Below are positions 4,351-55,678 of a stretch of DNA of 64,000 nucleotides, one piece after another. The DNA lies in contig NZ_CALEMI010000138.1 of the NCBI RefSeq assembly GCF_937910895.1, positions 5,280-69,279 on the forward strand, written 5' to 3'. The notes under the pieces were generated by a model, which worked only from the letters and a program-made list of their open reading frames with translations, made no database searches and was not told the DNA's origin. The number at the start of each line of letters is the position of its first letter. Positions within the stretch are counted from its first letter, which is position 1. The stretch comes from an uncultured Dokdonia sp. Its GTDB lineage: Bacteria; Bacteroidota; Bacteroidia; Flavobacteriales; Flavobacteriaceae. The translations under genes and the position numbers were made by a program.

Positions 4351-4364
4351 GCTTTCGCGAAAGC
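4351..4364. repeat. GCTTTCGCGAAAGC palindrome copy 1 (intergenic)
   Basis: Perfect 14-mer. Confidence 0.9.
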
Positions 4365-4497
4365 GTATAAAAACACTATTCTCTTAAGATCATTAAGAAG
4401 TAGCGTCTTGATGATCAGAAAATAATCCTCGAGGCAAGTCCATGAGGCATTCAATAGAATATTTTTTTTAGTTTCCGAAGCATGCTTCAAAGTATTA

Positions 4498-4540
4498 GAT
4501 CCCTCTATTTACTGAAACAAGTTCAGTAAATAGAGGGATC
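4498..4540 (-). terminator. 19-bp perfect hairpin, probable terminator
   Basis: GATCCCTCTATTTACTGAA-acaag-TTCAGTAAATAGAGGGATC, downstream of the LuxR-type pseudogene. Confidence 0.55.
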
Positions 4541-4580
4541 AGTTCAACGAGCCATTTTAAATTTGTTGCTTCACAACTTT

Positions 4581-5210
4581 TTAAAACGGCGTCTCACTAA
4601 TAAAAGCAATAATATCTTGCTTAGAATCTAACCCGATTTTTTTACGAATACGATATCTAGAAGACTTTATAGCGGCTATCGTATTATTTTGAAGTTTACT
4701 AATTTCTGTTGTATTCAGTCCCATTTTCATCAAACACAACAATTCTTTTTCATTCGCTTTTAACTGTGGAAAATGCGTATCTAATACTACTTTAAAGTCG
4801 ATACTTATCTCATCGAGATACGCTTGAAGTGTAGAGGATGTTTTTTGAGATACTTTCTCTGAAAGTAGTGAGGCAGACAGGGACCGTAATGTTGCCTGGC
4901 GTTCTTTCTCATTTTCTAACGAGATCACCTGTTTGATCTCATCCAATGTATTTTTTATAATTTCTTCGCGTACAGAATTTTCTACCACCACTTTTTTTAG
5001 CTCACGTTCCCGATTTACTAGGGCAAGATCTGCTTTTAATTTTTCGACTCCTGCCTCTTATGTCTCATTTGCGGCGGGATTCTAATAGAATCTGAACTAG
5101 CTTATTGTACTTGTAACTTAAATGCAATGGCGATACTATCGTTTTCCTGTGTAGATGCAGAAAAAGAAATGATAAAAAATACGATGATTATGATACGCTT
5201 TACTAGCTTT
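4581..5210 (-). pseudogene. internally deleted membrane-anchored LuxR-type (probably TPR-LuxR) regulator
   Basis: C-terminal HTH intact (EKELLCLMKMGLNTTEISKL..IKSSRYRIRKKIGL), frame open only to a stop at 5058-5060 with no ATG. A signal-peptide-like fragment (RIIIIVFFIISFSASTQENDS..VQ*ASSDSIRI) lies upstream in another frame. Confidence 0.65.
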
Positions 5211-5272
5211 TAAATACCTTATTCTTACTTTTTATAACCTATGTATAGCTATTCTTATTAGCTATAAAAGTA

Positions 5273-6337: not shown

Positions 6338-6529
6338 TAACTATTTATTATTTTGTTTCTGTTCTTCTACAAGATAATTTGTTTTATGAAACTATTCAAA
6401 ACTGTTGGTAGAAAAGTAATTAAAAGTAACTATGTAAAAGAAAAATTACACATTAAAAAAGCTGAACAATATGATCATTATTCAGCTTTAATATAAAGTT
6501 TGCTATTTAGAATTTACAACAAAAATAGG

Positions 6530-6892
6530 TTATAATTGTTTTAAAGATATAATCGTGTTTACACTTGTAAGGATGTCTTCATCATCTTCATCTGGTACGT
6601 TTTCTGTAGAAAAAGTAAGCTCAAATGTTTTACCTACCAAAGCTTTTGTTGTAAGATCATACATCTTTTTTACTTCATCAGTTATTTTATCAAAGGTCAT
6701 TTTATCTTCCACTCCGTCTTCATCCTTGTAGCTAAATGTATATACATCACCTACCATACCTAAATAAACGGCTTTTACAGTAGTAAGTGAGCTTTCTTCT
6801 TCAAATTCGTCATCGTCTTCTTGAGCTACAGCGCTGTAGTTACAAAATAAGAATGCAATTAAAAATAACGGTACTAATTTTAATGTTTTCAT
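6530..6892 (-). CDS. small acidic secreted hypothetical protein
   Basis: Signal peptide ending AVA-Q, Asp/Glu-rich; motif promoter upstream. Confidence 0.8.
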   Translation of the reverse strand: MKTLKLVPLFLIAFLFCNYSAVAQEDDDEFEEESSLTTVKAVYLGMVGDVYTFSYKDEDGVEDKMTFDKITDEVKKMYDLTTKALVGKTFELTFSTENVPDEDDEDILTSVNTIISLKQL

Positions 6893-6988: not shown

Positions 6989-6999
6989 ATTTTTTTTTT

Positions 7000-7013
7000 G
7001 CTTTCGCGAAAGC
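7000..7013. repeat. palindrome copy 2 (intergenic)
   Basis: Perfect 14-mer next to promoter site 1. Confidence 0.9.
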
Positions 7014-7118: not shown

Positions 7119-8339
7119 TTAGCTTTTTATTTTGAGCGCCTTTTTCTTGTTATTCAATTGAAGACACTTTTCTGTAATAACAATCCAGAAAGGACTAATG
7201 ACGAGTGTAAGCGATATCAAACTAATCGTAAACTTATAGCCATAATCAGCAATGATACCTAAACTTAACGCTGTAGAGCTTAATAAAAAACTAAGTTCTC
7301 CTATCTGAGCTAGTAAAGCACCTCCTAACAAGGCTTCTTCCCAAGTACAGGAAAAGAAGCGTAAAATGACAGAATTCAAAAAATGGTTTGTTACATACAC
7401 AACCACTAAGACGAGTAAAATTGTAGACAAATGCTCTTCTAGAAAAACAAGGTCAATTTGTAAGCCTACACTTATAAAAAAGAAGGATACAAATAATACT
7501 CTAAAGGAATGTAATGTATCATGAATCCAATCTGTTTCTTTTGCCGCATTGATAATCATACCTCCTACAAAAGCACCAAGCGCTCCAGACAAGCCAAAGA
7601 GTAACGTGAATAAAGCACCTCCAAAACAGAGAAAAATTGCCATAAACACCTGTAGCTCATAATCACTTTCAATATGCTTTGCAAATGGAATATGCAGGCG
7701 TCCTTTTACATATATATAAATAAGCGTTGCCACAACCATAGTTGCCCCAATAATCATCAAAACAAGACTTTGAGTAGACTGTTCTTTTCCTCCCAATTGA
7801 GAGATGATAATTAACAAGGGGACTAAAGCTACATCTTGAGCTAATAAAATGCTCAATACGTTTTTACCTACTTTAGTCGTAATAAGCTGTTTGTCTTGAA
7901 GCAGTTTTATAACTACAGCAGAGCTGCTTAAGGCGATTACAAAACCTAGCACTATAGAACGTGCATAGGTCCAATCTATAAAATAACCGATAGTTAAAAC
8001 GATAATGACACTAAAAGATATTTGTGCTAATGTGCCTAAGACAGCAACCCTCCATCGTTTTACAAAATCAATAATATTAATTTCCATCCCTATAAAAAAG
8101 AGAAGGAGTATAATACCTAGTTCGCCTAATAAGTAAATAGATTCTTTATCTTCTATAAAACCAGCTCCATGCTCACCTAAAAGTACTCCTGTAATTATAT
8201 ACCCTATAATGTAGGTTTGATTGAATTTACGCAACACCATACTTAAACCAATAACGACTAACGCAAGGATAGATACCAAAATGATAATCCCATCAATAGC
8301 AGTAGAAGAAGTTAAAAGTGTTAAGAAGTATAAATTCAT
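7119..8339 (-). CDS. cation:proton antiporter, CPA2/Kef family
   Basis: About 12 TM; GELGIILLLFFIGME, LSSSAVVIKLL, QDVA, QIGELSF motifs. Confidence 0.9.
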   Translation of the reverse strand: MNLYFLTLLTSSTAIDGIIILVSILALVVIGLSMVLRKFNQTYIIGYIITGVLLGEHGAGFIEDKESIYLLGELGIILLLFFIGMEINIIDFVKRWRVAVLGTLAQISFSVIIVLTIGYFIDWTYARSIVLGFVIALSSSAVVIKLLQDKQLITTKVGKNVLSILLAQDVALVPLLIIISQLGGKEQSTQSLVLMIIGATMVVATLIYIYVKGRLHIPFAKHIESDYELQVFMAIFLCFGGALFTLLFGLSGALGAFVGGMIINAAKETDWIHDTLHSFRVLFVSFFFISVGLQIDLVFLEEHLSTILLVLVVVYVTNHFLNSVILRFFSCTWEEALLGGALLAQIGELSFLLSSTALSLGIIADYGYKFTISLISLTLVISPFWIVITEKCLQLNNKKKALKIKS

Positions 8340-9474: not shown

Positions 9475-9488
9475 GCTTTCGCGAAAGC
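9475..9488. repeat. palindrome copy 3 (intergenic)
   Basis: Perfect 14-mer. Confidence 0.9.
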
Positions 9489-9512: not shown

Positions 9513-10484
9513 TTATGGGGTATCTTTTGATATATGTATGATCGCATCTCCTTGATTTACAATTGGATATTGATTAATACATATCACATAACCCGCATAA
9601 AGTGCTTTCACAGGTTTTTCAAAATCTCCAAAAGGGTCTGAAATACTACCTAGTTTATCGCCTTTATGAATGTGTGCACCTAGCTGCACGTGAGAATGAA
9701 ACATTCCAGAATATTTTGCTCTGATCCAAGAAGAATGATTAATTATGGTAGGCTTTATGGTTGGACTTTCCATTGTCTCTAACTCCTTTGTAAAATCTCT
9801 CATTCCGAGATGTTGCATCACTCTAAGTGCTCCAGAAACTCCTGATTTTGTAACGTCGTCATCTAAAAACAACGTTTTCCCTCCTTCAAATAACAATACT
9901 TTTTTACCTAATTTACGTAGAGTTTCTCTGAAGGATTTTTCTTTATTTTTTGATTGTAATATAAAAGGACATCCAAATACTTCTGCCAATTTCATACTCT
10001 CATCATCTCCTTGACTTACTCTTATTTGAGGAGCGTTAAAACGGCTATCTCCTCCAGTATGATAATCAATACAATACTCGGCTAATGGAGATATTTCTTT
10101 AATGATATGATAAGCAAACCTACTTGCTAGTGAACCACGCAGACTGCCTGGAAAGACTCTGTTTAAATCACGTCCATCTGGAAACTCACGTGTTTTATTG
10201 AGAAAACCAAAAATATTGACCACAGGAATACAGATAACCATGCCTCGCTGAGGTTTATTATATCCTTTGGACACCAGCTGCCTAACGATCTCGATACCAT
10301 TTACCTCATTGCCGTGAATCCCTCCTGTTATTAATAAGGTAGGCCCATCTTCCTTTGCCCTCTCTACAATAATGGGCACTTCGATCTTGGTGCGTGTGTG
10401 CAACTTTGCAATATCAAGATTTATTTGTACTCCCTTTCCATTAGATATGGCACGGCCTAATATTTCGATTTTTTTATTCTGCAT
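9513..10484 (-). CDS. succinylglutamate desuccinylase/aspartoacylase (M14-like) family protein
   Basis: [31 protein letters not shown] motifs. Start probably ATG at 10484 (or 10496), overlapping the rimK stop, not 10541. Confidence 0.9.
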
Positions 10485-11677: not shown

Positions 11678-12943
11678 ATGATAAAAACATTAAAAATAGG
11701 AGTCCTCGCCTTTATTTGCATGGCTTTTACGCTTCCTGTAAATGATACGGTCTATCCAATAGACGGGTATCAATATTCAGGAATCAAACGTTTAAAGCAT
11801 TTACAGCTTAGTATTTCTGGCGATCTGCCTGATGCTAAATTGCCTGCTGGTGCTTATAAAAGCATTAATGATATCAAGCTAAATTTGCTTTCGCGAAAGC
11901 AAAATACAACAGAAAGTATTTTAGTAGAAGATGCCGCATTACAAAAGAAAATCGATGCACTTTTCCCTCGTTTAGACAATAGCTACTCGGTGACTGTATT
12001 GGATATTTCTAAGCCTGACAGTTTACGATATGCACAGCAAAATGAGAGCAGAGGATATCAGCCTGGGAGCGTTGGCAAATTAGTAGTAGTGACCGCTTTG
12101 TTTGATCAATTAGCAAAAATATATCCTACTGATTATGACAAACGTGTATCTCTTTTAAAAACGAAAATAGTAAAAGGTGGAAACTGGGTGTTAACAGATG
12201 AGCATACCATTCCAGTATTTAATATAGAAACCAATAAATTGGTAAAACGTCAAGCTGTAGCTAGTGACGTTTTTTCACTCTTTGAATGGGCAGATCACGC
12301 GCTATCTGTAAGTAATAATGGGGCAGCAAGTGTGGTATGGAGAGAGGCTTTATTAATGGCTGCTTTTGGAGATAAATATCCAACTATGACTCAAGAAGAT
12401 GCTGATGCATACTTTAAAGCAGGACCTAAAAATGAGATTACAGACCTAGCCGTTTCTATTGTAAACCAACCCTTAAGAGATTTGGGTATTACAGAAGAGG
12501 AGTGGCGTTTAGGAACTTTTTTTACAAGAGGCGTAAACCCGTACGTGGGTAGTAAAGGAGGAAGCATAGGCTCTCCATTAGGTCTCATGAAATGGATGCT
12601 GCAACTAGAACAAGGCAAGATTGTAGACGAAAAATCAAGTCTTGAAATAAAGCGTTTAATGTATATGACCGATAGAAGAATACGCTATGCACAAGCCCCA
12701 GAATTGCGTGATGCTGCTGTCTATTTTAAATCAGGGAGTTTGTATAAATGTGATAAAACTAAGGGCGAGGGGTGTGGTAAATACAAAGGAAATGTTTTTA
12801 ACTATATGAACTCTGTTGCCATTATAGAGCATACAGATGGTTCAAAATACATGGTCTGCTTAATGACTAACGTATTGCGTAAAAACTCAGCGGGAGATCA
12901 CTTAGCATTAGCGAGTAGAATAGATAAAGTTATACGAAATTAA
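11678..12943 (+). CDS. serine hydrolase, class A beta-lactamase-like fold
   Basis: Signal peptide; SVGK (SxxK), SNN (SxN), KSG. Confidence 0.85.
   Translation: MIKTLKIGVLAFICMAFTLPVNDTVYPIDGYQYSGIKRLKHLQLSISGDLPDAKLPAGAYKSINDIKLNLLSRKQNTTESILVEDAALQKKIDALFPRLDNSYSVTVLDISKPDSLRYAQQNESRGYQPGSVGKLVVVTALFDQLAKIYPTDYDKRVSLLKTKIVKGGNWVLTDEHTIPVFNIETNKLVKRQAVASDVFSLFEWADHALSVSNNGAASVVWREALLMAAFGDKYPTMTQEDADAYFKAGPKNEITDLAVSIVNQPLRDLGITEEEWRLGTFFTRGVNPYVGSKGGSIGSPLGLMKWMLQLEQGKIVDEKSSLEIKRLMYMTDRRIRYAQAPELRDAAVYFKSGSLYKCDKTKGEGCGKYKGNVFNYMNSVAIIEHTDGSKYMVCLMTNVLRKNSAGDHLALASRIDKVIRN
11887..11900. repeat. palindrome copy 4 (in CDS, LSRKQ)
   Basis: Perfect 14-mer, extends to TTTGCTTTCGCGAAAGCAAA. Confidence 0.9.
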
Positions 12944-12946
12944 AGC

Positions 12947-15189: not shown

Positions 15190-16591
15190 AAACGGGATTG
15201 ACTATTTTTTTCTCGTATATGGAATCGCACTATTTATATGCTATTTCTTTTTAATTTTATTTGCAATAGCTGCCATTCATAAAAATAAGAAAAGAAGCTT
15301 ATTTTTAAATGAAAATGATATGAAAGGAGCTATTGACTTACCTAGTATAAGTCTCATTGCACCTGCCTATAATGAAGGGAAATCCATTATTATTAACGTA
15401 TACTCATTACTATCTATCCAATATCCCTATTATGAACTCATTATTGTAAATGATGGAAGTAAAGACGATTCATTACAACAACTTATCGCAGAGTTTAAAC
15501 TTGAAATAGCCCCTTTTTATCAAAGTGACCAACATATTCAACACGCTACTGTTATTGGTATTTATAAAAGTACTGATCCGAAATACAAGCATCTTACCAT
15601 TATAAATAAACAAAATGGGGGTCGAGCAGATGCTCTTAATTGTGGTATTGCTTACGCGAAAACGAACTTAGTCCTCTGTACAGATGCCGACTGTATTATT
15701 GAACAAGATGCCTTACTTAAAATGGTACGCCCTTATCTTGAAGAATTAGACAAAGAGATTATTGCCTGCGGAGGTGCCATAGGTATCGCTAATGATTCAA
15801 TTATAGAAAATGGAATATTGAAAGAATTAAAAATACCTAAGAGTATTCTTGCCAGAATTCAAGTTGTAGAATATATAAGAGCCTTTTTATTAGGAAGAAT
15901 GGCTTGGCATCACATAGATGGATTGATGCTGGTTTCTGGCGCTTTTGGATTATATCCTAGGTCAAGAGTTCTAGAAGTAGGTGGTTTCGATAAAAATACA
16001 GTAGGAGAAGATCTAGAACTATGCATCAGATTGCGTAGTCATATGGAACAATTACGTGAACCTTATGAAGTGGTTTACATTCCCGAAACACTATGTTGGA
16101 CAGAAGCTCCTTCTACACGTAAAGTGTATATCACTCAACGGGATCGTTGGGCCCGAGGTTTGTGGGAAACTATCAAAAAACATCGTCAGCTCTTTTTTAA
16201 TCCAAAATACCGTACTATGGGAATGCTTTTCTTTCCATATTGGGTCTTTTTTGAATTAGGTGCTCCCATTGTAGAGTTTTTGGGGCTTATTTGCTTGATT
16301 GTACTTACGGTATTCGGATTAATTAATTGGCCTGTTGCTATTGCGTTATTTGTAGTAGTATATTTAATAGGCTGTATATTTTCTACCGCAGCTATATTAT
16401 TATATACCGTTAATTTTAAACATTATGCAAAAGGCTCCATGGTTATAAAATTACTTCTAGCAGCATATCTAGAATCTTTTATATCTCACCCTATAATGCT
16501 CTATGCAGAAATAAAGGGCTATTTTAAAAAGATATTTGGTATTAAATCTACTTGGGGAACAATGACAAGAAAAGGGTTCACAACTAAGTGA
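15176..16591 (+). CDS. processive glycosyltransferase family 2 (PgaC/IcaA/YaiP-like synthase)
   Basis: APAYNE, NDGSKD, DADC, GED, QRDRW (QxxRW); flanking TM helices. Confidence 0.9.
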   Translation: MEIIKNGIDYFFLVYGIALFICYFFLILFAIAAIHKNKKRSLFLNENDMKGAIDLPSISLIAPAYNEGKSIIINVYSLLSIQYPYYELIIVNDGSKDDSLQQLIAEFKLEIAPFYQSDQHIQHATVIGIYKSTDPKYKHLTIINKQNGGRADALNCGIAYAKTNLVLCTDADCIIEQDALLKMVRPYLEELDKEIIACGGAIGIANDSIIENGILKELKIPKSILARIQVVEYIRAFLLGRMAWHHIDGLMLVSGAFGLYPRSRVLEVGGFDKNTVGEDLELCIRLRSHMEQLREPYEVVYIPETLCWTEAPSTRKVYITQRDRWARGLWETIKKHRQLFFNPKYRTMGMLFFPYWVFFELGAPIVEFLGLICLIVLTVFGLINWPVAIALFVVVYLIGCIFSTAAILLYTVNFKHYAKGSMVIKLLLAAYLESFISHPIMLYAEIKGYFKKIFGIKSTWGTMTRKGFTTK

Positions 16592-22801: not shown

Positions 22802-22815
22802 GCTTTCGCGAAAGC
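22802..22815. repeat. palindrome copy 5 (intergenic)
   Basis: Perfect 14-mer. Confidence 0.9.
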
Positions 22816-23882: not shown

Positions 23883-24949
23883 TATGATTCTGCTATGGCT
23901 CCTAAGCCAGCTGCTTCACTTGGATATAAAATACCTTTGTCTAATTTGAACAAGCCCTTAAAAGGATCTGCGATCATATCTAAATGACCATCTAGGTCTG
24001 CAAACTTGATGTTTTGTCTTGATAATGCAAAGTGTAAGCCTGCAGAAATTCCTAATCTACACTCATCTATACAGCCTACCATCACCTCTAGTCCCGCAGA
24101 TTGTGCCACAGAGTTAATGTGCATGGCTTCTCGAATACCGCCTACTTTCATAATTTTTATATTGATCATATCAATACGTTCATTTTGAGCCAAGCGGAAA
24201 GTATCTTTTAATGTTTTAATACTTTCGTCTGCCATTACAGGAATATCTGTTCCTTCGGTTACTTGCCCTAAAAGTTCATCCATTCCTTCTTTGGTAGGTT
24301 GTTCAAAAATCTCAATACCTACCTTTTTTGTTCGCTCAAAAAAAGAAATTGCTTCCTTTACGTTGTATCCTTGATTTCCGTCAAAACGTAATTGCGTGCT
24401 TGGGAACATTTCGCGTAAGCGTACCATCTTTTCTACATCTTCATCCAGAGACAGTCCGCCTTTTATTTTTAGAATAAAAAAGCCTTCTTTTACATAGCCT
24501 TGTGCGATACGTAATGTTTCTTCTATAGGCAAAATACCTATCGTAATACTGGTAGGAATGCTATGACGATAACCACCCAAGAACTTATACATAGGTGTTT
24601 CTAGCTTTCTAGCAACAAGATCTAGAAGCGCGATGTCTACCATTGCCAATGCAGAAGATTTCCTTTTTAACAACAACTTCAGGCCTTGCAATATTTCTGA
24701 ACTCATATAGGCATTTCTTCCTTTTAAAAAAGGAATGATAATATCTTTGATATCTTTTTCTACCTCATCTGGCAACTCTCCCGTAACTACTAGATCTGGT
24801 GCCGCACACCCATAGCCCACAAATCCTGTAGCTGTTTCAATTTTAAGAATAAAATTGACTGCCTTATCAATGGTTTCATAAGCAATAGTATACGGATCAG
24901 ATAGTTTTAAATCAAGACGTTCATAAGAGACGTTTGTAATATGCATCAT
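23882..24949 (-). CDS. enolase-superfamily dipeptide epimerase / DgcA-like racemase
   Basis: KIK, FDGNQG, FEQP, MADES, NIKIMKVGG, DLDG motifs. Confidence 0.88.
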   Translation of the reverse strand: MMHITNVSYERLDLKLSDPYTIAYETIDKAVNFILKIETATGFVGYGCAAPDLVVTGELPDEVEKDIKDIIIPFLKGRNAYMSSEILQGLKLLLKRKSSALAMVDIALLDLVARKLETPMYKFLGGYRHSIPTSITIGILPIEETLRIAQGYVKEGFFILKIKGGLSLDEDVEKMVRLREMFPSTQLRFDGNQGYNVKEAISFFERTKKVGIEIFEQPTKEGMDELLGQVTEGTDIPVMADESIKTLKDTFRLAQNERIDMINIKIMKVGGIREAMHINSVAQSAGLEVMVGCIDECRLGISAGLHFALSRQNIKFADLDGHLDMIADPFKGLFKLDKGILYPSEAAGLGAIAES

Positions 24950-33233: not shown

Positions 33234-35608
33234 TAGTTTAAGGTTCCTCTATAGATTAAAATATCTTTTACATCATTTATGATGACTGGATTAATATAGA
33301 GTTGTGATCTTTGATTTCTAAGAAGTACTTTGAGATTTGTCAATCGTTTTAAACTTGATTTGTAGTTACTCTCAAAGTGCGTTTCTACATAGGTTTTTAA
33401 CCGTAGTTCGTGCATCTCTTTATGAAGAAATACAAACTTTAAAACAATAACCTCTTCAAGTGTAAAGAAGTCATAAAAAGAGTATCCTTTAGGGTTGTAA
33501 ATAACTTGGTTGTCTTCTATCAGCGTAGTTCCGTAGGTCCATGATTGAAGTACTTCACCTATATTATAGTGACAGTCTCTAGCAAGTTTTAATACCTGCG
33601 ATTCTATTTGTTTTTTTGAAAGTATTTCTTTTTTTTCTGAAACAAGCACTTTATGTGAGGCACCATGTCGTATTAAAAATGCTTTATGAATTTCTTCAAA
33701 AGAAGCTTTTTCTAAGGTAATGTGTGTACTAAAACTATCTGTAAATGATAAACGCTGATCTAATAGTTTTCGCATTTGTCTGGAAATACTAACAATGATC
33801 AGTACCCTATCTGATTCAGATTCTACAAAACGTAATAACGCTCTCATATTTTCGAGCAATGAATGCGTGTCATCTTGCCAAAACTCTAAATCATCAATCA
33901 CTAATAATGGTCGGATACCTGACAGATTTTTTTTGATGTTTCGGAGTGCTTCCCTAATATTTTTTGTGGTCTGTATTTTTCTTCCTTCAAAAGGGATACT
34001 ACTGTCTACCTTTAAGAAAATGGTATGTCTTTTAAAGTGTTTCTGTGAGATATTTTCTAAGAATGTAGACTTCCCACTTAACGGACTTCCTTCTAACAAA
34101 ACCGCTTTATTAAAACCGTTGTCCCAATCTGTTTTAGCTTTCGCGAAAGCGGACTCTTGCGATTCTCTACTAACAATAAATTGGTCTCCTATAAAATTCT
34201 TATTTAAAAATAAGGTGTCATAGTGTGCATTTGCTTCTTTAAACATCCTGTAAGAAACACAACTGATGGATTGATCTATGAGACTCTGATTTGAAAATAA
34301 TGTACCGCTTTCATATTTAGAATTCAGTGCATTTATTCGTTTTGTGATACTATTTTTTACAGCTGTAAAAATAGATCCTTGACTACTTGCAAATTGCGAT
34401 AATGAAGATTGTATAGAAACATCTAAAAAATCTTCATCACTGTATATAAGTGTTGCTTGAAATTGCTCCTCAATCTTACCTGTGATTTCTTCAATAGTTT
34501 TATGTAACTCTTCATCCTGAATAGTAAGCGTTTGATGCACGTTTTTTAATGCTTGTAATTGAGAAGGCATCGCACCAAGTGTATCATGGCCTTTCTCTAC
34601 AAGAAGACTACTTTTAAGATTTAATAAGCTATGATTAAAAAGCGTCTCCATCGTATTTTTTTGTTCCCACAAATCCATAAATAAGGGAATGATCTCAAAA
34701 TCAAACCATTTTTTTACGGCTTTGTTAAAATCAATATGTCTCGTAAGTAACAGACCATTTTCTGTAGCGACGGGTAGCGTTATTGTGGTGAGTACTTTTA
34801 CCTTTTCTTCTAAGTTTTTTGTATACTCGGTTTGTACAAGGTCTTTTGGGTTTTCTATAATGGCATGAGTTATCCAAGTGATCCGTTTAGGAATATCACT
34901 TGTGGTCGTCATATCATTGATAGACCCAATGGTCTCTCCAAGCAATTTAATTACTTTTTTAGACGTATCACTAGTATACAAAGCAGTATCTATAGTATAT
35001 TGCCCAATTTTTTTAAATGAAGTAATCGTCCTCGTCATTGGACCATGACTTTGTATGATTTCTTTAATTTGCTGGGTAGTTTTTATAAACTGTTCGCTGT
35101 AGACAGGCCAAGCATTTTTTTGATGCCTAATGTTATCACGTAATTTTTCATTCGTTTTTTGAGAATCATATATGGCTGCTCGTTCTTCTTTGAGATGTTG
35201 TATTGCATATTGCGTTGCTTCTGTGATGATCTGTACAGAAGCGACTACATGATTGTTTACGCTAACGTTATCTATACCTCCTTCAAGTTCTTTAAGTTCA
35301 GCAATTTCTAACTGAAGCATCACATCTCTATGCAATAAGAATACGTCTTTATATATTTTGGAAAAAGCATAGTGTAGCAAGTACACTTCATTTGTAGGAA
35401 CATCATGAGATGCGTTTATACGATCAAATTCTTGATTTCCTATTGCTAAGTAATCACTAGAAAGTTGTAAAAAATCTTCTTTGATGTACTGTTGTAATGC
35501 TTCGCTGGAACCTATTGTAGATAAGGTGGCTACGTAGTGTTCCATTTTTTTGAGAAACATTTCTGAAGCAACTATATCATCTACTTCTAATGATTGATTT
35601 TCCTGCAT
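33233..35608 (-). CDS. P-loop ATP-binding protein with a long helical N-terminus
   Basis: Walker A GSPLSGKST, Walker B LLVIDDLE. Confidence 0.8.
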   Translation of the reverse strand: MQENQSLEVDDIVASEMFLKKMEHYVATLSTIGSSEALQQYIKEDFLQLSSDYLAIGNQEFDRINASHDVPTNEVYLLHYAFSKIYKDVFLLHRDVMLQLEIAELKELEGGIDNVSVNNHVVASVQIITEATQYAIQHLKEERAAIYDSQKTNEKLRDNIRHQKNAWPVYSEQFIKTTQQIKEIIQSHGPMTRTITSFKKIGQYTIDTALYTSDTSKKVIKLLGETIGSINDMTTTSDIPKRITWITHAIIENPKDLVQTEYTKNLEEKVKVLTTITLPVATENGLLLTRHIDFNKAVKKWFDFEIIPLFMDLWEQKNTMETLFNHSLLNLKSSLLVEKGHDTLGAMPSQLQALKNVHQTLTIQDEELHKTIEEITGKIEEQFQATLIYSDEDFLDVSIQSSLSQFASSQGSIFTAVKNSITKRINALNSKYESGTLFSNQSLIDQSISCVSYRMFKEANAHYDTLFLNKNFIGDQFIVSRESQESAFAKAKTDWDNGFNKAVLLEGSPLSGKSTFLENISQKHFKRHTIFLKVDSSIPFEGRKIQTTKNIREALRNIKKNLSGIRPLLVIDDLEFWQDDTHSLLENMRALLRFVESESDRVLIIVSISRQMRKLLDQRLSFTDSFSTHITLEKASFEEIHKAFLIRHGASHKVLVSEKKEILSKKQIESQVLKLARDCHYNIGEVLQSWTYGTTLIEDNQVIYNPKGYSFYDFFTLEEVIVLKFVFLHKEMHELRLKTYVETHFESNYKSSLKRLTNLKVLLRNQRSQLYINPVIINDVKDILIYRGTLN
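34137..34150. repeat. palindrome copy 6 (in CDS, AFAKA)
   Basis: Perfect 14-mer. Confidence 0.9.
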
Positions 35609-37352: not shown

Positions 37353-37366
37353 GCTTTCGCGAAAGC
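37353..37366. repeat. palindrome copy 7 (divergent intergenic)
   Basis: Perfect 14-mer, extends to 22 bp. Confidence 0.9.
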
Positions 37367-43051: not shown

Positions 43052-43276
43052 ATATTTTAGTTGCCAAAGATACCTTTAGCTTTCTTTTAACTTGTTTTAT
43101 AGTATATACTCTTTGGAAGTATAGAAGCATATTGATTTCTATAGAGGTCTATATAGATTTGTAAATCAACACGTTTTACGTATTTCGCGTAAGCGTATTT
43201 ATATAGAACTTTAGTTACTTTCTAGATTCCTTAGGGTCAAACTGCTCAATAGGCGGCTGCTTTAATAAGACACCTA

Positions 43277-45977: not shown

Positions 45978-47435
45978 TTAAATAGGCTCACTAACTTCAG
46001 GTATGGTTTTTTTTGCTTTCGCGAAAGCGTTATTAATATCATAATCATATCCAAGAATAGACAGTAATTGCTCCGAGGTTTGCTGGTTTGCAAACACCGA
46101 AGTTGTGATCTCTCCATCTTCATTGCGATCTATTAAAATATGTTTAGGTGTTGGGATCAAGCAATGCTGCAATCCACCAAAACCTCCGATGGTCTCTTGA
46201 TAAGCACCGGTATTGAAAAAGCCGATATAGAGTGGTTTTTCTTGAGTAAATTTAGGTAAATAGATTGCATTCATGTGTTGCTCACTGTTGTAATAATCAT
46301 CACTGTCACAGGTAAGACCTCCTAATAAAACGCGTTCATATTCTTTATCCCACCCAGAAATAGGCAACATCACAAACCGTTTATTAATTGCCCAAGTATC
46401 TGGCATTGTGGTGATAAATGAAGAATTAATCATATTCCACTTTTCTCGATCATTTTGTTTTTTCTGATAGAGCACTTCATAAATAGCGCCTCCTGCTTCA
46501 CCTACCGTAAAGCTACCAAATTCTGTAAAGATATTAGGTACATCAACGCCAGCCTCATCACAGGTTTGCTTAATCTGTCGGATGATCTCATCAATCATGT
46601 ACGCATAATCATACTCAAAAGCGAGCGAATTTTTTATAGGAAAACCACCGCCTATATTGAGACTATCAAGCTTTGGATTTTCTTTTTTAAGAGCTACGTA
46701 CACCTTCAAACACTTAGAAAGTTCATTCCAGTAATAAGCTGTATCACGTATCCCTGTATTAATAAAAAAATGTAGCATCTTAAGCGTTACCTTAGGATTG
46801 TCCTTAATCTCACTGTTGTAAAAAGGTACAATATTTCTATATCCTATCCCAAGTCTGGACGTATAAAATTCAAACTTAGGCTCTTCTTCTGATGCAATTC
46901 GGATTCCTATAGTATAGGTGCCGTCTATGACTTCGCTAAGTAAGTTAATTTCTTCATAGTTATCAATAATAGGTATGCAGTTTTTATGTCCGTTATTGAT
47001 AAGTCTTGCAATATTTTGTATGTATTGATCACGTTTAAAACCATTGCTTATAACATAAGTTTCATTCGTTATTTTTCCTTGTGCTTTCAGGTTTTCAACA
47101 ATATCCATATCAAAAGCAGATGAGGTTTCAATATGAATATCATTTTTAAGAGCCTCGTCTAACACGTGTTTAAAGTGTGAGCTCTTGGTGCAATAGCAGT
47201 AATTATATGAGCCTTTATAGTCATTTTCTTTAATTGCATTTGCAAACCATCCTTTTGCTCTGTTTATATTTTCAGATATTTTAGGGAGATATGTAAACTT
47301 TAATGGCGTACCATATTTTGCTGTAAGCGCCATGAGATCAATCCCATGAAAATTGAGTGTATTATTTTTAAGTGTGAACTCCTCTTGTGGGAAATCAAAA
47401 GTTTGATCTATAAGATCAATATATTTTGTTTTCAT
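45978..47435 (-). CDS. speA: arginine decarboxylase (fold type III PLP)
   Basis: YCTKSSHF, SRLG, LNIGGG, TCDSDDYY, GAYQE; directly upstream of speB. Confidence 0.88.
   Translation of the reverse strand: MKTKYIDLIDQTFDFPQEEFTLKNNTLNFHGIDLMALTAKYGTPLKFTYLPKISENINRAKGWFANAIKENDYKGSYNYCYCTKSSHFKHVLDEALKNDIHIETSSAFDMDIVENLKAQGKITNETYVISNGFKRDQYIQNIARLINNGHKNCIPIIDNYEEINLLSEVIDGTYTIGIRIASEEEPKFEFYTSRLGIGYRNIVPFYNSEIKDNPKVTLKMLHFFINTGIRDTAYYWNELSKCLKVYVALKKENPKLDSLNIGGGFPIKNSLAFEYDYAYMIDEIIRQIKQTCDEAGVDVPNIFTEFGSFTVGEAGGAIYEVLYQKKQNDREKWNMINSSFITTMPDTWAINKRFVMLPISGWDKEYERVLLGGLTCDSDDYYNSEQHMNAIYLPKFTQEKPLYIGFFNTGAYQETIGGFGGLQHCLIPTPKHILIDRNEDGEITTSVFANQQTSEQLLSILGYDYDINNAFAKAKKTIPEVSEPI
46015..46028. 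repeat. palindrome copy 8 (speA tail, AFAKA)
   Basis: Perfect 14-mer. Confidence 0.9.
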
Positions 47436-48287: not shown

Positions 48288-49994
48288 TTATGCAGATTTT
48301 TTTAAATTTTTTATATAGTATGAAGGAGTGATGCCTGTTTTTTTCTTGAAAGCTGCTGTAAACGACTCGGCAGAGTTAAAACTTGCTTCTTTGGCAACTC
48401 CTAAAATCGTATAACGATGTAGTGTTGGATTCACTTTTAACTCATTAAGAATATACTCAATACGTAAATCATTAATGTAGTGAATAAATGTCTTTCCCTT
48501 ATACGTATTAATGATTTTAGAAAGGTATTTCGTATTTGTTGACAGCTTCCTTGCCAAAGAACTAATAGTTATAGTACTCTTTAAAAATCCATTCTTAGAT
48601 TCAAAAACAAGCAATTTATCTAAGATCACAGCGACTACGTCTGGATCAATATTAAGGCTTTGAGAAGATGTTTTTAATGACGCCGATTCTTTGCTACTTT
48701 TCGTGGGTTTTTCATTTAACGCAGCAATAATAGTATCAAATCGCTCTCTGTATATTTTATGTTTCCTGATTTGAAGAAAAAACAAGAATGTTATAATAAC
48801 AAACAGAATAAGCAGGGAGAGTACTTTTGTGCTAAGACTTTGATTTTTATTCTTTAATTTTTGAATTAAAAGCTCTTTACTTTTAACTAATTCAGGAGTA
48901 TCAAACTCTGAATTTAATGTATTTGTTGTATGAATTTTCCTAGCGTTCGTAATACTATCAAATCTTATTAATTTATTAATTGTACTTAAGTGTTCTTTGT
49001 AATTATTACTTGCTTTATAATCCTTAATGAGAGAAACATACGCATCTCTTACTTCTGGAAGTATCAAATCCGTTTTTGTAAGCAAAGAGTCAACTTTTAA
49101 AAAATAACCTGTATCGTCTTTTTCATTAGAAATTAGAGATATTTTACCTAAATAAAATTGAGCAATGATATAATATTTCAAATCGTACTGAGAAGTAAGA
49201 TTTGCTAAAGATGCCCCCTTCTGTAAAAAAGAATATGCTTTATCTATGTTTTTTTTATAGAACAAATTAACCCCTTCATTAATCATAGCAACGCTTAATG
49301 CATAGGTATGATCTTTATAAATCTTATCAATTACCAAATCGTAGTAATAAGAAGCCGAGTCATATTTTTTTTCATTCCTATATGATTCTGATAAGTTTAA
49401 AGAGATTTGAACTATCACACTAGAATTTGGAAATTTCCTTTTTTGTTCAAGGTCAAGACACGTTTTATATAATATCAATGCCTCTTTATAATTTCCAATA
49501 TCCTTTTTAATATCTGCTATATTATTAAGACCAATAATTTCATAATCTTTATCATTCTTCTTTTTTGAAAGTCTCAACACCTTAAGATATTGCTGTAGCG
49601 CATTTTCATAATCATACGCATTTTGATAATACAACCCCAACCTATTATATGCGGCTATAGAGTATAAAGAATCGACACTATTACTCTCTGTTAATGACTG
49701 ATTGACAAGATCAAACTGTCTTTCTCTATCGTCTGTATAATAAGAAAGATAATTCAACGCAATAGATCGTTTTATTCTATCATTGGCCGCAGTCGCTTTA
49801 TGTAGATATGCATTAAGATATTGTATAGAAGAGGTCGTATCCTCTGCGTGTTGCGCATATTTTTTGTATAGATACTCATAACTTTCGTTTGCCAATGAAT
49901 CTGGTATTATAGAAGCGCTCTTCTGCCCTAACAAAAGAGAATTGAAACTAAAAATTAACCAAAATAAGAAATAGAACTTTGTATTTGAACGCAT
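48288..49994 (-). CDS. membrane-spanning TPR-sensor AraC-family regulator
   Basis: Signal peptide, TPRs (AYNRLGLYYQNAYDYENALQQY), TM VLSLLILFVIITFLFFL, AraC HTH (LSTNTKYLS..FNSAESFTAAFKKKTGITPSYY). Confidence 0.92.
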   Translation of the reverse strand: MRSNTKFYFLFWLIFSFNSLLLGQKSASIIPDSLANESYEYLYKKYAQHAEDTTSSIQYLNAYLHKATAANDRIKRSIALNYLSYYTDDRERQFDLVNQSLTESNSVDSLYSIAAYNRLGLYYQNAYDYENALQQYLKVLRLSKKKNDKDYEIIGLNNIADIKKDIGNYKEALILYKTCLDLEQKRKFPNSSVIVQISLNLSESYRNEKKYDSASYYYDLVIDKIYKDHTYALSVAMINEGVNLFYKKNIDKAYSFLQKGASLANLTSQYDLKYYIIAQFYLGKISLISNEKDDTGYFLKVDSLLTKTDLILPEVRDAYVSLIKDYKASNNYKEHLSTINKLIRFDSITNARKIHTTNTLNSEFDTPELVKSKELLIQKLKNKNQSLSTKVLSLLILFVIITFLFFLQIRKHKIYRERFDTIIAALNEKPTKSSKESASLKTSSQSLNIDPDVVAVILDKLLVFESKNGFLKSTITISSLARKLSTNTKYLSKIINTYKGKTFIHYINDLRIEYILNELKVNPTLHRYTILGVAKEASFNSAESFTAAFKKKTGITPSYYIKNLKKSA

Positions 49995-50119: not shown

Positions 50120-50133
50120 GCTTTTGCGAAAGC
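50120..50133. repeat. palindrome variant (one mismatch)
   Basis: TACGCTTTTGCGAAAGCGTA. Confidence 0.8.
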
Positions 50134-52948: not shown

Positions 52949-54790
52949 ATGAGCACTATAAACTACTCTTCACAAATCAAATTTTCTCTTTTAAACATTT
53001 TTATTTTTGGATTTTTCTTTTCTTGTAACGAAAACTCAAAAGATACTTCTTACATACAAACCTTAGAACCTGATTGGAAAAGCACACAAGTATTATATCT
53101 ACAAGAAATCAATAAAACGATTGTCTTATTAGATAGCCTAAAAGACATATCTCCTAACGCACCAGAAGCCAAAGAAATATTTAAAAAGATACGTATTGCA
53201 TTTAAAAAAGCAGAACCTTATGCTTCGTATCTTAATCCTGAAGTAGGACATCGCATTAACAGTCCCGCCCTACCTATTTATAAAGAAGACAATGGTAAAA
53301 CTTTATATCCCATAGGATTACAAAAAATAGAGGAAAGTATTTATGAAGGAGAAAGCTCTAAAAAACAGTATAAAAACGAGTTAAAAACAACTATTGGATT
53401 ATTGAATAGTCTTAAAAAAAGTATTGAAAAAAGAGAGCTTACAGCGCAACGTTATTTCATTGCAACACACCAACAATTATTTCGTGTATTAAGTTTTTCT
53501 ATCTCAGGATTTGACACTCCTGTAAGCCAATTAGGAATTCAAGAAAGTAGGATCTCACTACAAAACCTATATGATAGCTATGTTATAAGCATTCAGAAGA
53601 TTATTCAATCTAAGAATAAAGATTTAGATATGACGTTCAAAAAACAGATAGAAGCGGCGACATACTATACCGCATCAAATCCAGACTTTGACAGCTTTGA
53701 TCGCTATACATTTATCAAAGAATATCTAAACCCTATCACACGCTCTTGGGTCGCTATTAGAAAAACATCTAAATTATGGGAGGGTACAAACTCCCAACCA
53801 TTTAATTTTGATGCACCTACTTTCTTTGAAAATGATAGTTATAATGTCTCTTTCTTTATTTCAGGAACTAATAAAAAACCTACTGATGCACAAATAAAAT
53901 TAGGTAAAAAACTATTCTTTGATAAAAAATTATCTGCAAACAATCAAATGGCATGTGCTACGTGTCACATTCCTTCCAAAGCATACACGGATGGTCTTAT
54001 GCTAAATAAGGGAAATAAAGGAAATAATTTAAAACGCAACACCCCAACTTTAATAAATACCATATTTCAAAAGAATTTCTTTTGGGATGGACGCTCACAT
54101 ACATTGATGGATCAAGTGTCATCTGTTTTTACAAATACAGACGAATTTAACTCTAATGTTCATACGTTTTCAAAAGATATTTTACAGGATTCTACATATA
54201 AAAATCTTTTTCAAGAAGCCTACCGCGGAGTGTCAAATCGAAATATTGATGTTATAAAAGCGATTGCTGCGTATGTAGCAACTCTTAATGGGTTTAATTC
54301 AAAATTCGATCGCAATATGAGAGGAGAGGAAGACACATTTACGCAAAGTGAAAAAGAAGGTATGAACTTGTTTATGGGAAAAGCACTTTGTGCTACATGT
54401 CACTTTATACCACTTACCAATGGTACAGTACCTCCGTTTTTTCAAGAGACAGAACGCGAAGTAATAGGCGTTCCTAATACCTCTGAAAATAGAGCTCTTG
54501 ATGATGACTTAGGGTATTACTGGAAGTTTAATGAGTCCCTACACAAAGGTATGTTTAAAACCCCTACCGTACGTAATGCATCATTAACCGCACCGTATAT
54601 GCACAATGGCGTATATAATACTTTAGAAGAAGTGATAGACTTCTATAACAAAGGCGGCGGTGGTGGATTAGGTTTTGATCTAGAACACCAAACTTTACCT
54701 TTTGACAATTTGAAATTAACAGATAAAGAGCAACGAGCACTTGTTGATTTTGTAAAGACCTTAACCGATACACAAGTAGATTCTTATTAA
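52949..54790 (+). CDS. di-heme cytochrome c peroxidase (MauG-like) lipoprotein
   Basis: Two CATCH motifs, RNTPTL, FWDGR, FKTPTVRN..PYMHNG. Confidence 0.9.
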   Translation: MSTINYSSQIKFSLLNIFIFGFFFSCNENSKDTSYIQTLEPDWKSTQVLYLQEINKTIVLLDSLKDISPNAPEAKEIFKKIRIAFKKAEPYASYLNPEVGHRINSPALPIYKEDNGKTLYPIGLQKIEESIYEGESSKKQYKNELKTTIGLLNSLKKSIEKRELTAQRYFIATHQQLFRVLSFSISGFDTPVSQLGIQESRISLQNLYDSYVISIQKIIQSKNKDLDMTFKKQIEAATYYTASNPDFDSFDRYTFIKEYLNPITRSWVAIRKTSKLWEGTNSQPFNFDAPTFFENDSYNVSFFISGTNKKPTDAQIKLGKKLFFDKKLSANNQMACATCHIPSKAYTDGLMLNKGNKGNNLKRNTPTLINTIFQKNFFWDGRSHTLMDQVSSVFTNTDEFNSNVHTFSKDILQDSTYKNLFQEAYRGVSNRNIDVIKAIAAYVATLNGFNSKFDRNMRGEEDTFTQSEKEGMNLFMGKALCATCHFIPLTNGTVPPFFQETEREVIGVPNTSENRALDDDLGYYWKFNESLHKGMFKTPTVRNASLTAPYMHNGVYNTLEEVIDFYNKGGGGGLGFDLEHQTLPFDNLKLTDKEQRALVDFVKTLTDTQVDSY

Positions 54791-54859
54791 CACAAATACA
54801 CAAATATTTTTTTGACTAGTAGTAGCTTAGAGTTATAAAGATTCTGTCGTGTATAAGAT

Positions 54860-55125
54860 AGTACTAAAATGAGTAGCCTATTGGTTTTGAGTAGCATCCT
54901 TTATTTCATGTTTCTTATGAGGGAGACTATGCAATCACGGAAAGACAATCTATTATTAAAATCCCAACAAAAGATAACCGCTACATCGCTTCCTTAAAAA
55001 AGGATATCAAGTCTTCTTACAACCCTACTGTGATAGAAAATGACATTGATTTATGGGATACGGTGCCTTTAGGAGAAGCCCTTAAAAAATACATCAACAC
55101 TTATAGAGAGTATTACAAAAATTAA
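54860..55125 (+). pseudogene. gene remnant (C-terminal fragment)
   Basis: E*PIGFE*HPLFHVSYEGDYAITERQ..LKKYINTYREYYKN*: about 75 open codons after two in-frame stops, no start. Confidence 0.5.
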
Positions 55126-55577
55126 AATACCAATTCATACACAGGAGTTTCATCCTCCTTGAACTCAAACAATCTTGAATAATCCATCACATTAGTAACA
55201 CCGTCAAGTGTGCATAAAAAAGCAATAGTTTCAGAAAGTCCTTGAAACAGCATATCTTTATCTGTTGGATTGGATGGTTTTACCCCTTTATGATGAAGTG
55301 GCAGCGTATAACCACAAGCTTTTAAAAACACAGCTTCTATTTGTAACAATTCTTGAGGTGAATATCCATTAAATTTCCTTCCTAATCCTTGATGTACTTT
55401 CCCTACATAGTTGAGCACAATAGAACCATGACCATCAGAAAGATGCTTCCAAGCCTCTGTATGATCAAGAATATTTCCAACTGCACAAGACTTACAACAT
55501 TCTGGATGTAAGGTATTTTTATGAAAAGCGGTGTATAATTTTGTAATTGCTTGTTCTAATCTTTTAGGCGTATACAT
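55122..55577 (-). CDS. conserved hypothetical Cys-cluster protein
   Basis: ECCKSCAVGNILD; 151 aa. Confidence 0.8.
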   Translation of the reverse strand: MYTPKRLEQAITKLYTAFHKNTLHPECCKSCAVGNILDHTEAWKHLSDGHGSIVLNYVGKVHQGLGRKFNGYSPQELLQIEAVFLKACGYTLPLHHKGVKPSNPTDKDMLFQGLSETIAFLCTLDGVTNVMDYSRLFEFKEDETPVYELVF

Positions 55578-55664
55578 AGCATTCTTTTTACGGATTAAAA
55601 TACTACAAATTCATAGAATAACCATAAAAATTAACACTATCTGAAGGATCCTTTTTCTGAGTAC

Positions 55665-55678
55665 GCTTTCGCGAAAGC
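55665..55678. repeat. palindrome copy 9 (divergent intergenic)
   Basis: Perfect, extends to TACGCTTTCGCGAAAGCGTA. Confidence 0.9.

Follow-up and report, generated by a model that had tools for sequence, protein, structure and literature searches.

A 14-bp palindrome iterated throughout Dokdonia and Nonlabens genomes: a candidate self-DNA word

The window analysed here, a 64-kb stretch of DNA, carries nine perfect copies of the palindrome GCTTTCGCGAAAGC, all of them where the initial annotation had placed them (Table 1). The one-mismatch copy that it listed is also present, as is the shared variant ATTTCGCGTAAGCGTA at both of its positions; this variant belongs to a recurrent two-mismatch form, TTTCGCGTAAGCG, which has 39 occurrences in the genome (both strands counted). 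The two-mismatch copy at 15650 is an addition to the earlier list. Translation proved the proposed coding contexts correct (LLSRKQ once and AFAKA twice), and the ORF map agrees with the divergent spacers assigned to the copies at 37353 and 55665. Dinucleotide-preserving shuffles gave an expectation of 0.14 matches with at most two mismatches in the window, and 0 of 100 shuffles reached 11; for perfect copies, base composition gives ~7e-5, in agreement with the earlier estimate of 5e-5 copies per 64 kb.

Table 1. Copies of the palindrome and its variants in the 64-kb window
Feature	Position	Context
Perfect copy	4351..4364	Tandem spacer, ORFs 2441-4102(-) / 4581-4991(-)
Perfect copy	7000..7013	Tandem spacer, ORFs 6530-6892(-) / 7119-8339(-); 5′ side with T-run
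Perfect copy	9475..9488	25 nt past stop of ORF 9513-10541(-), downstream
Perfect copy	11887..11900	Within ORF 11678-12943(+), LLSRKQ; outgroup ortholog LLSVNE, gap-free
Two-mismatch copy GCTTACGCGAAAAC	15650..15663	Within ORF 15176-16591(+)
Perfect copy, 20-mer form TACGC...GCGGA	22802..22815	Tandem spacer, ORFs 21733-22632(-) / 22923-23882(-)
Variant ATTTCGCGTAAGCGTA, two-mismatch form TTTCGCGTAAGCG	24408..24423	Within ORF 23882-24949(-)
Perfect copy	34137..34150	Within ORF 33233-35608(-), AFAKA
Perfect copy	37353..37366	Divergent spacer, ORFs 36434-37267(-) / 37513-38136(+); T-run 5′, A-run 3′
Variant ATTTCGCGTAAGCGTA	43182..43197	Spacer, ORFs 41525-43051(-) / 43277-43696(-)
Perfect copy	46015..46028	3′ tail of speA-like ORF 45978-47435(-), AFAKA
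One-mismatch copy GCTTTTGCGAAAGC	50120..50133	Spacer, upstream of ORF 48288-49994(-)
Perfect 20-mer copy TACGCTTTCGCGAAAGCGTA	55665..55678	Divergent spacer, ORFs 55122-55577(-) / 55997-57121(+)

The source genome is a 4.81-Mb Dokdonia-clade assembly from marine metagenomes. Perfect copies number 879 in it (~1 per 5.5 kb) vs ~0.005 expected, and GCTTTCGCGAAAGC tops all 10- to 16-mers of the genome by count. The copies are thus genome-wide rather than restricted to the window; this k-mer count, together with presence across the clade, bears out the genome-wide signal that had been suggested. More than half of the copies are in ORFs (471, or 54%) and 383 are in spacers; those in ORFs fall evenly along genes and in all three codon phases. 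Copy density is 0.12 per kb in ORFs vs 0.53–0.68 per kb in spacers, a 4- to 5-fold enrichment, and it is similar for tandem, divergent and convergent spacers; the placement is independent of transcription units and of reading frame. Spacing is more even than chance (coefficient of variation, CV, 0.69 vs 0.96 under random placement), and the copies are isolated rather than paired, as had been noted for the window: neighbour gaps shorter than 1 kb number 26 in the genome vs 98 expected. Two contigs (C87 and C113) are almost palindrome-free. Besides the perfect copies, the genome contains 101 copies with one mismatch and 196 with two; one-mismatch copies are thus rarer than two-mismatch ones.

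The core GCTTTCGCGAAAGC extends to a full consensus, TACGCTTTCGCGAAAGCGTA, and further to a degenerate flank of ~21 nt on each side, ~56 bp in total. The flanks are mirror-symmetric and C-poor, with a position-specific profile (C is tolerated at d=8, 9, 12, 17 and 20) that forms no smooth composition gradient; they are also strand-polar, G+T-rich on the 5′ side and A+C-rich on the 3′ side. All three codon phases show this same profile, and so do spacers lying 35 nt or more from the nearest ORF, which is what a reader with two-fold symmetry would lead one to expect. At all distances the flanks pair just as often as their composition predicts; individual copies do not form a longer stem, and the flanks contain no discrete sub-motif.

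All 24 sampled genomes of the genus Dokdonia carry the palindrome (70–906 copies), and one sister genus, Nonlabens, the nearest to Dokdonia by SpeA identity (88%), has as many copies. The remaining 149 sampled genera of the family have 0–12 copies and the 16 other families sampled from the order have none; no comparable word, or dialect, was seen in other genera of the outgroup sample. A heavy-metal island with copies inside its genes is found in other genera, where the copies have spread no further. No copy is present in the lytic Nonlabens phage P12024S when up to two mismatches are allowed, and cultured phages showed no match of at least 16 nt beyond chance; some IMG/VR contigs contain 3–6 copies, prophage and host DNA being indistinguishable for these contigs. 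The genome is represented only in metagenomic DNA runs; the contigs covering it had loose ends at each palindrome, coming from other word-bearing loci, and yielded no usable polymorphism.

Alignment of orthologs, proposed earlier as a way to tell insertion from substitution, indicated that copies in genes come mostly from substitution: 37 of 55 gene sites align with the outgroup gap-free within two residues, so these copies arose by substitution. The outgroup DNA at gene sites matches 5.4 of the 14 letters vs 3.4 at random places. Once present, the palindrome stays in place; between species, orthologous sites are exact in 37 of 41 cases with flank identity of ~82%, the neutral expectation being ~6%. 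At the speA site (46015), 18 aligned loci from the genus retain it whether the site is coding or not, one of them with one mismatch; several species have it immediately past the stop codon or 40–50 nt beyond. Substitutions in the flanks, compared between two genomes (G000 and G006), leave the flanks 86% identical vs 82% for the background, with composition kept; this spectrum fits selection and mutation bias alike and does not decide between them.

Enrichment of the palindrome in spacers could suggest a REP/MITE-like mobile element spread by a RAYT transposase, or else a transcription terminator or RNA hairpin. A few between-species alignments break at the palindrome, and two tandem duplications have it at their bounds; both observations could be read in the same way. 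In addition, we observed a 45-nt mini-insert, not noted before, that sits exactly at the palindrome centre, between the two half-sites; the same mini-insert also interrupts the loop in hairpins of an unrelated family, and Rfam gave no match on this element or in the window. REP/BIME sequences too are short abundant palindromes enriched between genes and are targets for other small elements (IS1397 and IS621 insert into REPs). The mobile or RNA reading is, however, already contradicted by the copies in genes: half of all copies are there, and most of the outgroup-aligned ones are indel-free. REPs are found only in spacers, commonly in pairs, as imperfect palindromes with a GTAG head, and have a RAYT gene that is itself flanked by REPs; the palindrome has none of these features. 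No transposase or RAYT is linked to it, and the copies do not mark the termini of any known IS or REP, a possibility that the initial annotation had left for checking. The genome has just one Y1 transposase, in a single copy; the GTAG hairpins on either side of it are unrelated to the palindrome and found nowhere else. As for a terminator or RNA family, individual copies lack the extended stem, on both strands the hairpin has a T-run before it and an A-run after it (opposite to an intrinsic terminator, in which a U-run comes after the hairpin, at gene ends), divergent and convergent spacers are equal in density, and the palindrome has no Rfam match. We consider a mobile or RNA element extremely improbable. 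Composite elements were also rejected, as the sequences between closely paired copies are unrelated.

Substitution origin, the depletion of one-mismatch sites and the CpG-rich core (TCGCGA/CGCG) would agree with the model that Elhai proposed for HIP1, in which the word is a by-product of a sequence-specific methyltransferase and biased short-patch mismatch repair turning near-matches into the full word; in cyanobacteria, HIPs track cognate orphan methyltransferases (PMC4390886). In the source genome a search for a Vsr homologue found none. The single C5 methyltransferase is part of a restriction cassette that also encodes a controller protein, and 150 other genera, Nonlabens among them, lack an ortholog of it; the sister genus likewise lacks D12-class enzymes, and a search for N4/N6 (PF01555) enzymes gave none. 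The three families searched (C5, D12 and N4/N6) thus offer no co-occurring cognate orphan methyltransferase of the HIP1 type. Nor did the suggested methylase-linked TCGCGA site gain support: the C5 and D12 enzymes are either strain-specific or missing from Nonlabens. A repair enzyme is also not expected to read 14–20 bp plus 21-nt flanks, nor to space sites evenly. A methylation and repair origin therefore appears very unlikely.

In other respects the likeness to HIP1 (GCGATCGC) and the alternate HIPs of cyanobacteria (Elhai 2015, PMC4390886; Xu et al. 2018, PMC5861425) is close. Both words are G+C-rich perfect palindromes, the most over-represented in their genomes and present genome-wide and clade-wide; both lie within genes as well as between them, are kept at orthologous positions better than their flanks, have non-random spacing and are clade-specific. 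The palindrome differs in its length (14–20 bp vs 8 bp), its host phylum (Bacteroidota), its density (~1 per 5 kb vs up to one per gene), its 21-nt strand-polar flank signature and its lack of a cognate orphan methyltransferase in the families searched. The role of both words was long obscure; HIP1 has now been tied to transformation, as it raises natural transformation and was proposed to be an uptake or Chi-like signal (bioRxiv 10.1101/2024.09.10.611283; PMC13756078). Xu et al. concluded, on the other hand, that HIP1 is a chromosome-organising site under ordinary selection (PMC5861425).

The latter conclusion could be extended to the palindrome, which would then be the binding site of a chromosome-organising or nucleoid-associated protein, kept in regular spacing by ordinary purifying selection, according to a logic like that of ParB/Noc sites or of the REP elements that bind gyrase and IHF. 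The symmetric, footprint-like signature of ~56 bp speaks for such a site, as do even spacing and conservation in place, the features from which Xu et al. so interpreted periodic conserved HIP1 (PMC5861425). Selection at each of 879 letter-perfect sites would impose a large mutational load, however, and no candidate protein was found. One regex hit for a ParB-like reader turned out to be a sulfite reductase; the sole extra ParB-like protein (595 aa) is on a mobile island, is 88–92% identical in unrelated genera, has a patchy distribution across genera and is absent from Nonlabens, and was rejected as the reader. In form, the 16-bp perfect palindrome of the TTTC..GAAA type resembles parS and the Noc site, dimer-bound palindromes of 14–16 bp and the same type; these have few to ~100 sites, and by inspection their half-sites are out of register with that of the palindrome. 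Overall we rate a chromosome-organising role as unlikely, though it is a serious rival.

One could also think of a Chi-like signal for a helicase-nuclease (AddAB or RecBCD), working from either side, with the 5′ G+T-rich strand becoming the RecA-loaded 3′ tail. The density of one copy per 5.5 kb is about that of E. coli Chi, which likewise marks self DNA for recombination, and the lytic phage lacks copies. On both sides, the strand with its 3′ end toward the centre is G+T-rich and C-poor, a polarity that matches the Chi-generated tail and the preference of RecA for GT-rich DNA. Known Chi sites, in contrast, are 5–8 nt long, non-palindromic, oriented with a strand bias relative to replication, only few-fold over-represented and read on a single strand, whereas a palindrome of 14–20 nt has no orientation and would fold on unwinding. 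The flank signature, being position-specific in its tolerance of C, is a further difficulty; the flank polarity fits the 3′-tail model, while length and exactness do not fit Chi. Although a Chi-like component was proposed for HIP1 (bioRxiv 10.1101/2024.09.10.611283), we find it quite unlikely that the palindrome acts chiefly in this way.

The reading that we tentatively favour, while giving it somewhat less than even chances, is that the palindrome is a clade-specific self-DNA tag for a dimeric protein during DNA uptake or recombination. Being written every ~5,000 bases and letter-perfect across species, the word behaves like the self-DNA words HIP1 and the DNA-uptake sequences. The earlier suggestion of a HIP1- or uptake-like signal spreading into coding sequence is supported by its distribution, its use of three phases, its substitution origin and its conservation in place. 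The uptake sequences of Pasteurellaceae (USS) and Neisseriaceae (DUS) are likewise clade-specific words in hundreds to thousands of copies, with gene copies made by substitution at tolerant places and frames and with a weaker extended motif in the flanks; like the palindrome, they are evenly spaced, are missing from foreign DNA and persist on DNA that has been exported to other genera. For the palindrome, we count phage P12024S and the almost palindrome-free contigs C87 and C113 as such foreign DNA. Near-misses of the palindrome are actively purged, which we count in favour of the self-DNA word; in USS and DUS, one-mismatch copies are common.

With a self-DNA tag, a symmetric protein (a dimer or larger) would recognise the palindrome as DNA. 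New copies would emerge in place by point substitution wherever local sequence and encoded protein allow, and copies would be kept, and one-mismatch variants removed, via a process linked to homologous exchange within the clade. The likeliest step would be natural transformation, with tagged DNA being taken up or processed in preference to other DNA; a Chi-like stimulation of recombination may come in addition. Three things are inferred here: a protein as the reader, uptake or recombination as the stage at which it reads, and a drive, in place of ordinary selection, as what maintains the word.

Several observations count against the self-DNA word. The word is much longer and more exact than known uptake sequences; USS and DUS are 9–12 nt, non-palindromic and form inverted pairs when acting as terminators, and uptake bias and competence have been shown for them. 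Its strand-polar flank composition is not explained by a self-word and has no counterpart in USS or DUS, and its even spacing and in-place conservation would be expected equally for a chromosome-organising site under ordinary selection. We know of no report of natural competence in Dokdonia or Nonlabens, and no reader protein was found among the candidates searched. In favour of the tag, parts for uptake are encoded (ComEC, ComEA-like proteins and a T2SS/T4P-type ATPase with secretin). As a correlate of the palindrome, competence genes were rejected for being too widespread in palindrome-free genera: ComEA-like proteins are in 143 of 151 genera, thus not clade-specific, and the T2SS-type ATPase is in 34 of 151, of which 32 lack the palindrome. 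The gene for this ATPase in the source genome is on a contig nearly free of palindromes.

An unlikely variant, which takes in the flanks and the mini-insert, is that an undescribed clade-specific enzyme does more than bind the palindrome and opens or cuts its centre as a hairpin or cruciform. In that case a single-strand process running outward, such as recombinase loading or 3′ tail protection, would have left the strand-polar, C-poor 21-nt flanks as its footprint, and the mini-insert would be a parasite of the opened state. If true, the palindrome would be a two-way hybrid of an uptake sequence and Chi, a type of self-DNA processing site without a described counterpart.

The palindrome appears to be undescribed: we found neither the 14-mer nor the 12-mer in the literature, and the papers on Dokdonia or Nonlabens that we found do not describe it. 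To our knowledge, few lineages (Pasteurellaceae, Neisseriaceae and cyanobacteria) have self words written across the whole genome; the origin and readers of these words have been debated for 30 years. As a self-DNA word, the palindrome would be an independent case in another phylum, and an unusually sharp one, with an exact core of 14–20 bp and a symmetric signature of 56 bp. Its origin is confined to two sister genera, with close palindrome-free relatives available for comparison; given this narrow origin, phyletic profiling should be able to find the reader gene. Because Dokdonia strains can be cultured and serve as models for marine bacteria, tests by uptake assay, pull-down and methylome are within practical reach. 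The palindrome is also a clean marker for DNA once resident in the clade, as shown by the heavy-metal island exported elsewhere, and it could prove useful in manipulating marine flavobacteria genetically.

A search of the window for GCTTTCGCGAAAGC returned all nine perfect copies and the one-mismatch copy listed by the initial annotation, together with a further copy carrying two mismatches; shuffling gave 0.14 matches when two mismatches or fewer were allowed. The shared variant ATTTCGCGTAAGCGTA was present at both places named for it. The ORF map and translation confirmed three perfect copies inside ORFs; six others were located in spacers, and two of these spacers were indeed divergent, as had been claimed. 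The word was not restricted to the window: a k-mer count over the genome that holds it (G000: 4.81 Mb in 169 contigs, with the window on contig C138; 35.6% G+C; among the read runs searched, present only in marine and macroalgal metagenome runs) gave 879 perfect, 101 one-mismatch and 196 two-mismatch copies, and the nested palindromes were the most frequent 10-, 12-, 14- and 16-mers of this genome. Inner positions T3, T4 and G7 of the word were nearly invariant. An asymmetric variant, TTTCGCGTAAGCG, occurred 39 times genome-wide; as its other strand reads GCT-TAC-GCG-AAA, encoding AYAK in place of AFAK, for some of its copies this form may be a concession to constraint on the protein.

Coordinates and copy numbers of the word and of associated features (G000, genome of the window; G006, another species; G141, a genome of another genus; C, contig; L, extracted locus)
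Feature	Location	Detail
TTTCGCGAAA	G000	1094 copies
GCTTTCGCGAAAGC (14-mer)	G000	879 copies
CGCTTTCGCGAAAGCG	G000	549 copies
TACGCTTTCGCGAAAGCGTA	G000	156 copies
GCTTTCGCGAAAGC, perfect, in the window	4351, 7000, 9475, 11887, 22802, 34137, 37353, 46015, 55665	in ORFs: 11887 (LLSRKQ), 34137 and 46015 (AFAKA); in divergent spacers: 37353, 55665
GCTTTCGCGAAAGC, one mismatch	window 50120	
GCTTTCGCGAAAGC, two mismatches	window 15650	
ATTTCGCGTAAGCGTA	window 24408, 43182	
TTTCGCGTAAGCG	window 24408-24423, 43182-43197	
speA-like gene end	window 45978-46050	
Mini-insert examples	G006 L039:16528-16606, L041:13570-13665; G000 C27:26637, C146:2058, C168:8091-8180	
ATTCCCG-loop-CGGGAAT hairpin examples	G000 C37:7037, C112:9791, C77:17199	
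CRISPR-like array	G000:C91:22541-28200	
Tandem duplications	G000:C117:11500-11660, C135:6638-6900	135 and 234 bp
Heavy-metal resistance island	L070:3640-16605 (G141:C1:2822001-2842000)	
IS200-like Y1 transposase	L225:1400-1960 (G000:C161:104860-105420)	156 aa
ParB_N + HTH_ParB protein	L234:1543-3330 (G000:C154:10542-12329)	595 aa

A mirror-symmetric signal continued past the 20-mer form of the palindrome, reaching ∼21 nt into the flanks. On the strand running 5′ to 3′ towards the centre, T and G were enriched and C was scarce (2–8% at most positions), being tolerated at d = 8, 9, 12, 17 and 20. The profile was identical in spacer copies no closer than 35 nt to any ORF and in gene copies of each of the three codon phases; it therefore belongs to the element and does not derive from coding. 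Since left and right flanks of single copies were not complementary above the prediction from composition, the palindrome is not part of a longer stem; no discrete sub-motif emerged from the flanks either. A two-fold symmetric putative protein recognising the word would account for both the palindrome and its mirrored flanks.

When ORFs were called crudely, from ATG starts with a minimum of 70 aa (83% coding), 471 copies fell inside ORFs (0.12 per kb), evenly distributed along gene length; 275 were in phase 0 (AFAKA), 89 and 107 in the remaining two phases. By the same calls, the 383 spacer copies had densities of 0.60, 0.53 and 0.68 per kb in tandem, divergent and convergent spacers, respectively. 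That promoter-type and terminator-type spacers had equal densities disfavours a role in transcription; so does the arrangement of runs around the hairpin, a T-run on its 5′ side and an A-run on its 3′ side whichever strand is read. Readings of the word as an RNA element or as a mobile element are contradicted.

Ortholog alignments, proposed as a means of distinguishing insertion from substitution, were gapless within two residues against a word-free outgroup at 37 of 55 gene sites, with outgroup counterparts of AFAKA such as EFNRA, EFTRA and AFISA. Outgroup DNA at these sites matched 5.4 of the 14 letters of the word (3.4 at random places). Gapless alignment and partial match together indicate that most copies were written by several substitutions at partly word-like places; at 18 of the 55 sites, each with nearby indels, a small insertion is possible. 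Once present, copies persisted. In comparison with the closest species sampled (flank identity ∼82%), 37 of 41 orthologous sites were exact against a neutral expectation of ∼6%. Flank identity was 86% versus a background of 82%; thus flanks diverge almost as fast as the background, with composition retained.

The copy at 46015 was in an unchanged position across 18 aligned loci of the genus, 17 of them exact and one with a single mismatch. In G000 and near relatives a speA-like ORF runs through the palindrome into a tail of 20–30 codons; other congeneric species have a gene that ends just ahead of it, so that the word sits on a shifting gene end. As the palindrome was kept whether inside the C-terminal tail of speA or past the stop codon (directly or by 40–50 nt), the conserved entity at this site is the DNA word and not a peptide.

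Each of the 24 genomes sampled from the genus carried 70–906 copies, and 16 genomes, one from each of 16 other families of the order, carried none. In 150 further genera of the family, a single one, taken to be Nonlabens, had 592 copies of the 16-mer and the remainder 0–12. Exact 20-mer matches came from Dokdonia, Nonlabens, uncultured Flavobacteriaceae and one Muricauda record. Nonlabens was also the nearest genus by SpeA identity (88%), and the next two genera had 0 and 1 copies of the 16-mer, a pattern that fits a single origin of the word in the common ancestor of Dokdonia and Nonlabens. No comparable word of its own was found in the outgroup sample.

The lytic Nonlabens phage P12024S (35.7 kb) had no copy even allowing two mismatches, and none of the cultured phages searched had a long match. 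Some IMG/VR contigs had 3–6 copies, with prophage and host DNA not separable there. A genome of a genus otherwise without the word (G141) contained a heavy-metal resistance island (RND pump, outer-membrane factor, multicopper oxidase, two P-type ATPases) with four palindromes within coding sequences. Two palindrome spacings of this island recurred in genomes of other genera: G155 and G178 had the one of 933 bp, G155 and G056 that of ∼2480 bp; a further genome, G139, had 12 copies in 75 kb. The island looks like DNA exported after residing in the Dokdonia/Nonlabens clade. A ParB-like protein of G000 was rejected as the protein reading the word, being a mobile-island gene: it recurred at 88–92% identity in several unrelated genera, and in a number of these it lay on the contig of, and ∼10–100 kb from, clustered palindrome copies. 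It probably belongs to the same mobile island as these clusters.

The initial annotation had considered that copies could be ends of a transposable element with a linked transposase; no transposase was linked to the palindrome. The only Y1 transposase of G000 is single-copy and flanked on both sides by private CCCGAGGC-TCT-GCCTCGGG hairpins, then GTAG, the hairpins being absent elsewhere in the genome. A separate observation is that ∼40 places in G000, none in the window, had a 27–55-nt insert exactly between the half-sites GCTTTCG and CGAAAGC. This mini-insert (consensus TACTTCGRC-N4-5-CTCAGYATAAACTTC...) was mostly in spacers, at times in tandem, with no Rfam match and no inner fold. Eleven further copies occupied the loop of an unrelated, REP-like hairpin family, ATTCCCG...CGGGAAT, found mainly in spacers; therefore the insert targets hairpin centres, not one sequence. 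At three orthologous sites, a 44–45-nt insert was present in only one of G000 and G006; the difference ran in both directions and involved no target duplication. The mini-insert, a new side finding, is a small mobile element homing to hairpin centres, which suggests that the palindrome is at times extruded or single-stranded in the cell. G000 also had a CRISPR-like array, whose repeat, present at least 75 times with a period of 75–76 bp, contains ...GCTTTCAGTTCTCTATTTTTATAGATGA....

Copies were isolated, as claimed (26 gaps <1 kb versus 98 expected), and spaced more evenly than chance (CV 0.69 versus 0.96 at random; lowest of 500 trials, 0.85). Two long contigs of G000 were nearly palindrome-free, C87 (47 kb, no copies) and C113 (79 kb, two copies); either recent arrival as islands or contamination of the assembly (3%) may account for them. 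C113 is the site of a type I-like methyltransferase. Two tandem duplications were built of units that each opened with the palindrome and then an identical flank, and several breaks of homology between G000 and G006 adjoined a palindrome; rearrangements may end preferentially at the word. HIP1, the highly iterated palindrome of cyanobacteria, was earlier interpreted as a chromosome-structure signal (PMC5861425), and a chromosome-organising site is the reading of our word that we rank second.

HIP1 was also interpreted as a product of methylation-linked repair (PMC4390886). Such an origin ranks, for our word, after a chromosome-organising site. The sole C5 methyltransferase of G000 was rejected as the cause, as it sits beside a controller protein in a restriction cassette and has no ortholog in 150 genera; D12 methyltransferases were rejected as patchily distributed and missing from Nonlabens. 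Neither a Vsr homologue nor a PF01555 enzyme was found in G000.

The word itself did not appear in the literature searched for its sequence; its behaviour is like that of HIP1 and of uptake sequences. Recent work connects HIP1 with natural transformation, in which it would serve as a signal of the uptake or Chi-like kind (bioRxiv 10.1101/2024.09.10.611283; PMC13756078). Of uptake machinery, G000 had ComEC, ComEA-like proteins and, on C113, its only T2SS/T4P-type ATPase and secretin; none of these was clade-specific. A Chi-like signal also ranks after a chromosome-organising site; we place uptake- or recombination-linked self-recognition first, as a tentative choice that falls somewhat short of an even chance. 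Taken together, the observations fit a word that marks the resident DNA of the clade, arising by mutation and maintained by a process that works on the DNA itself.
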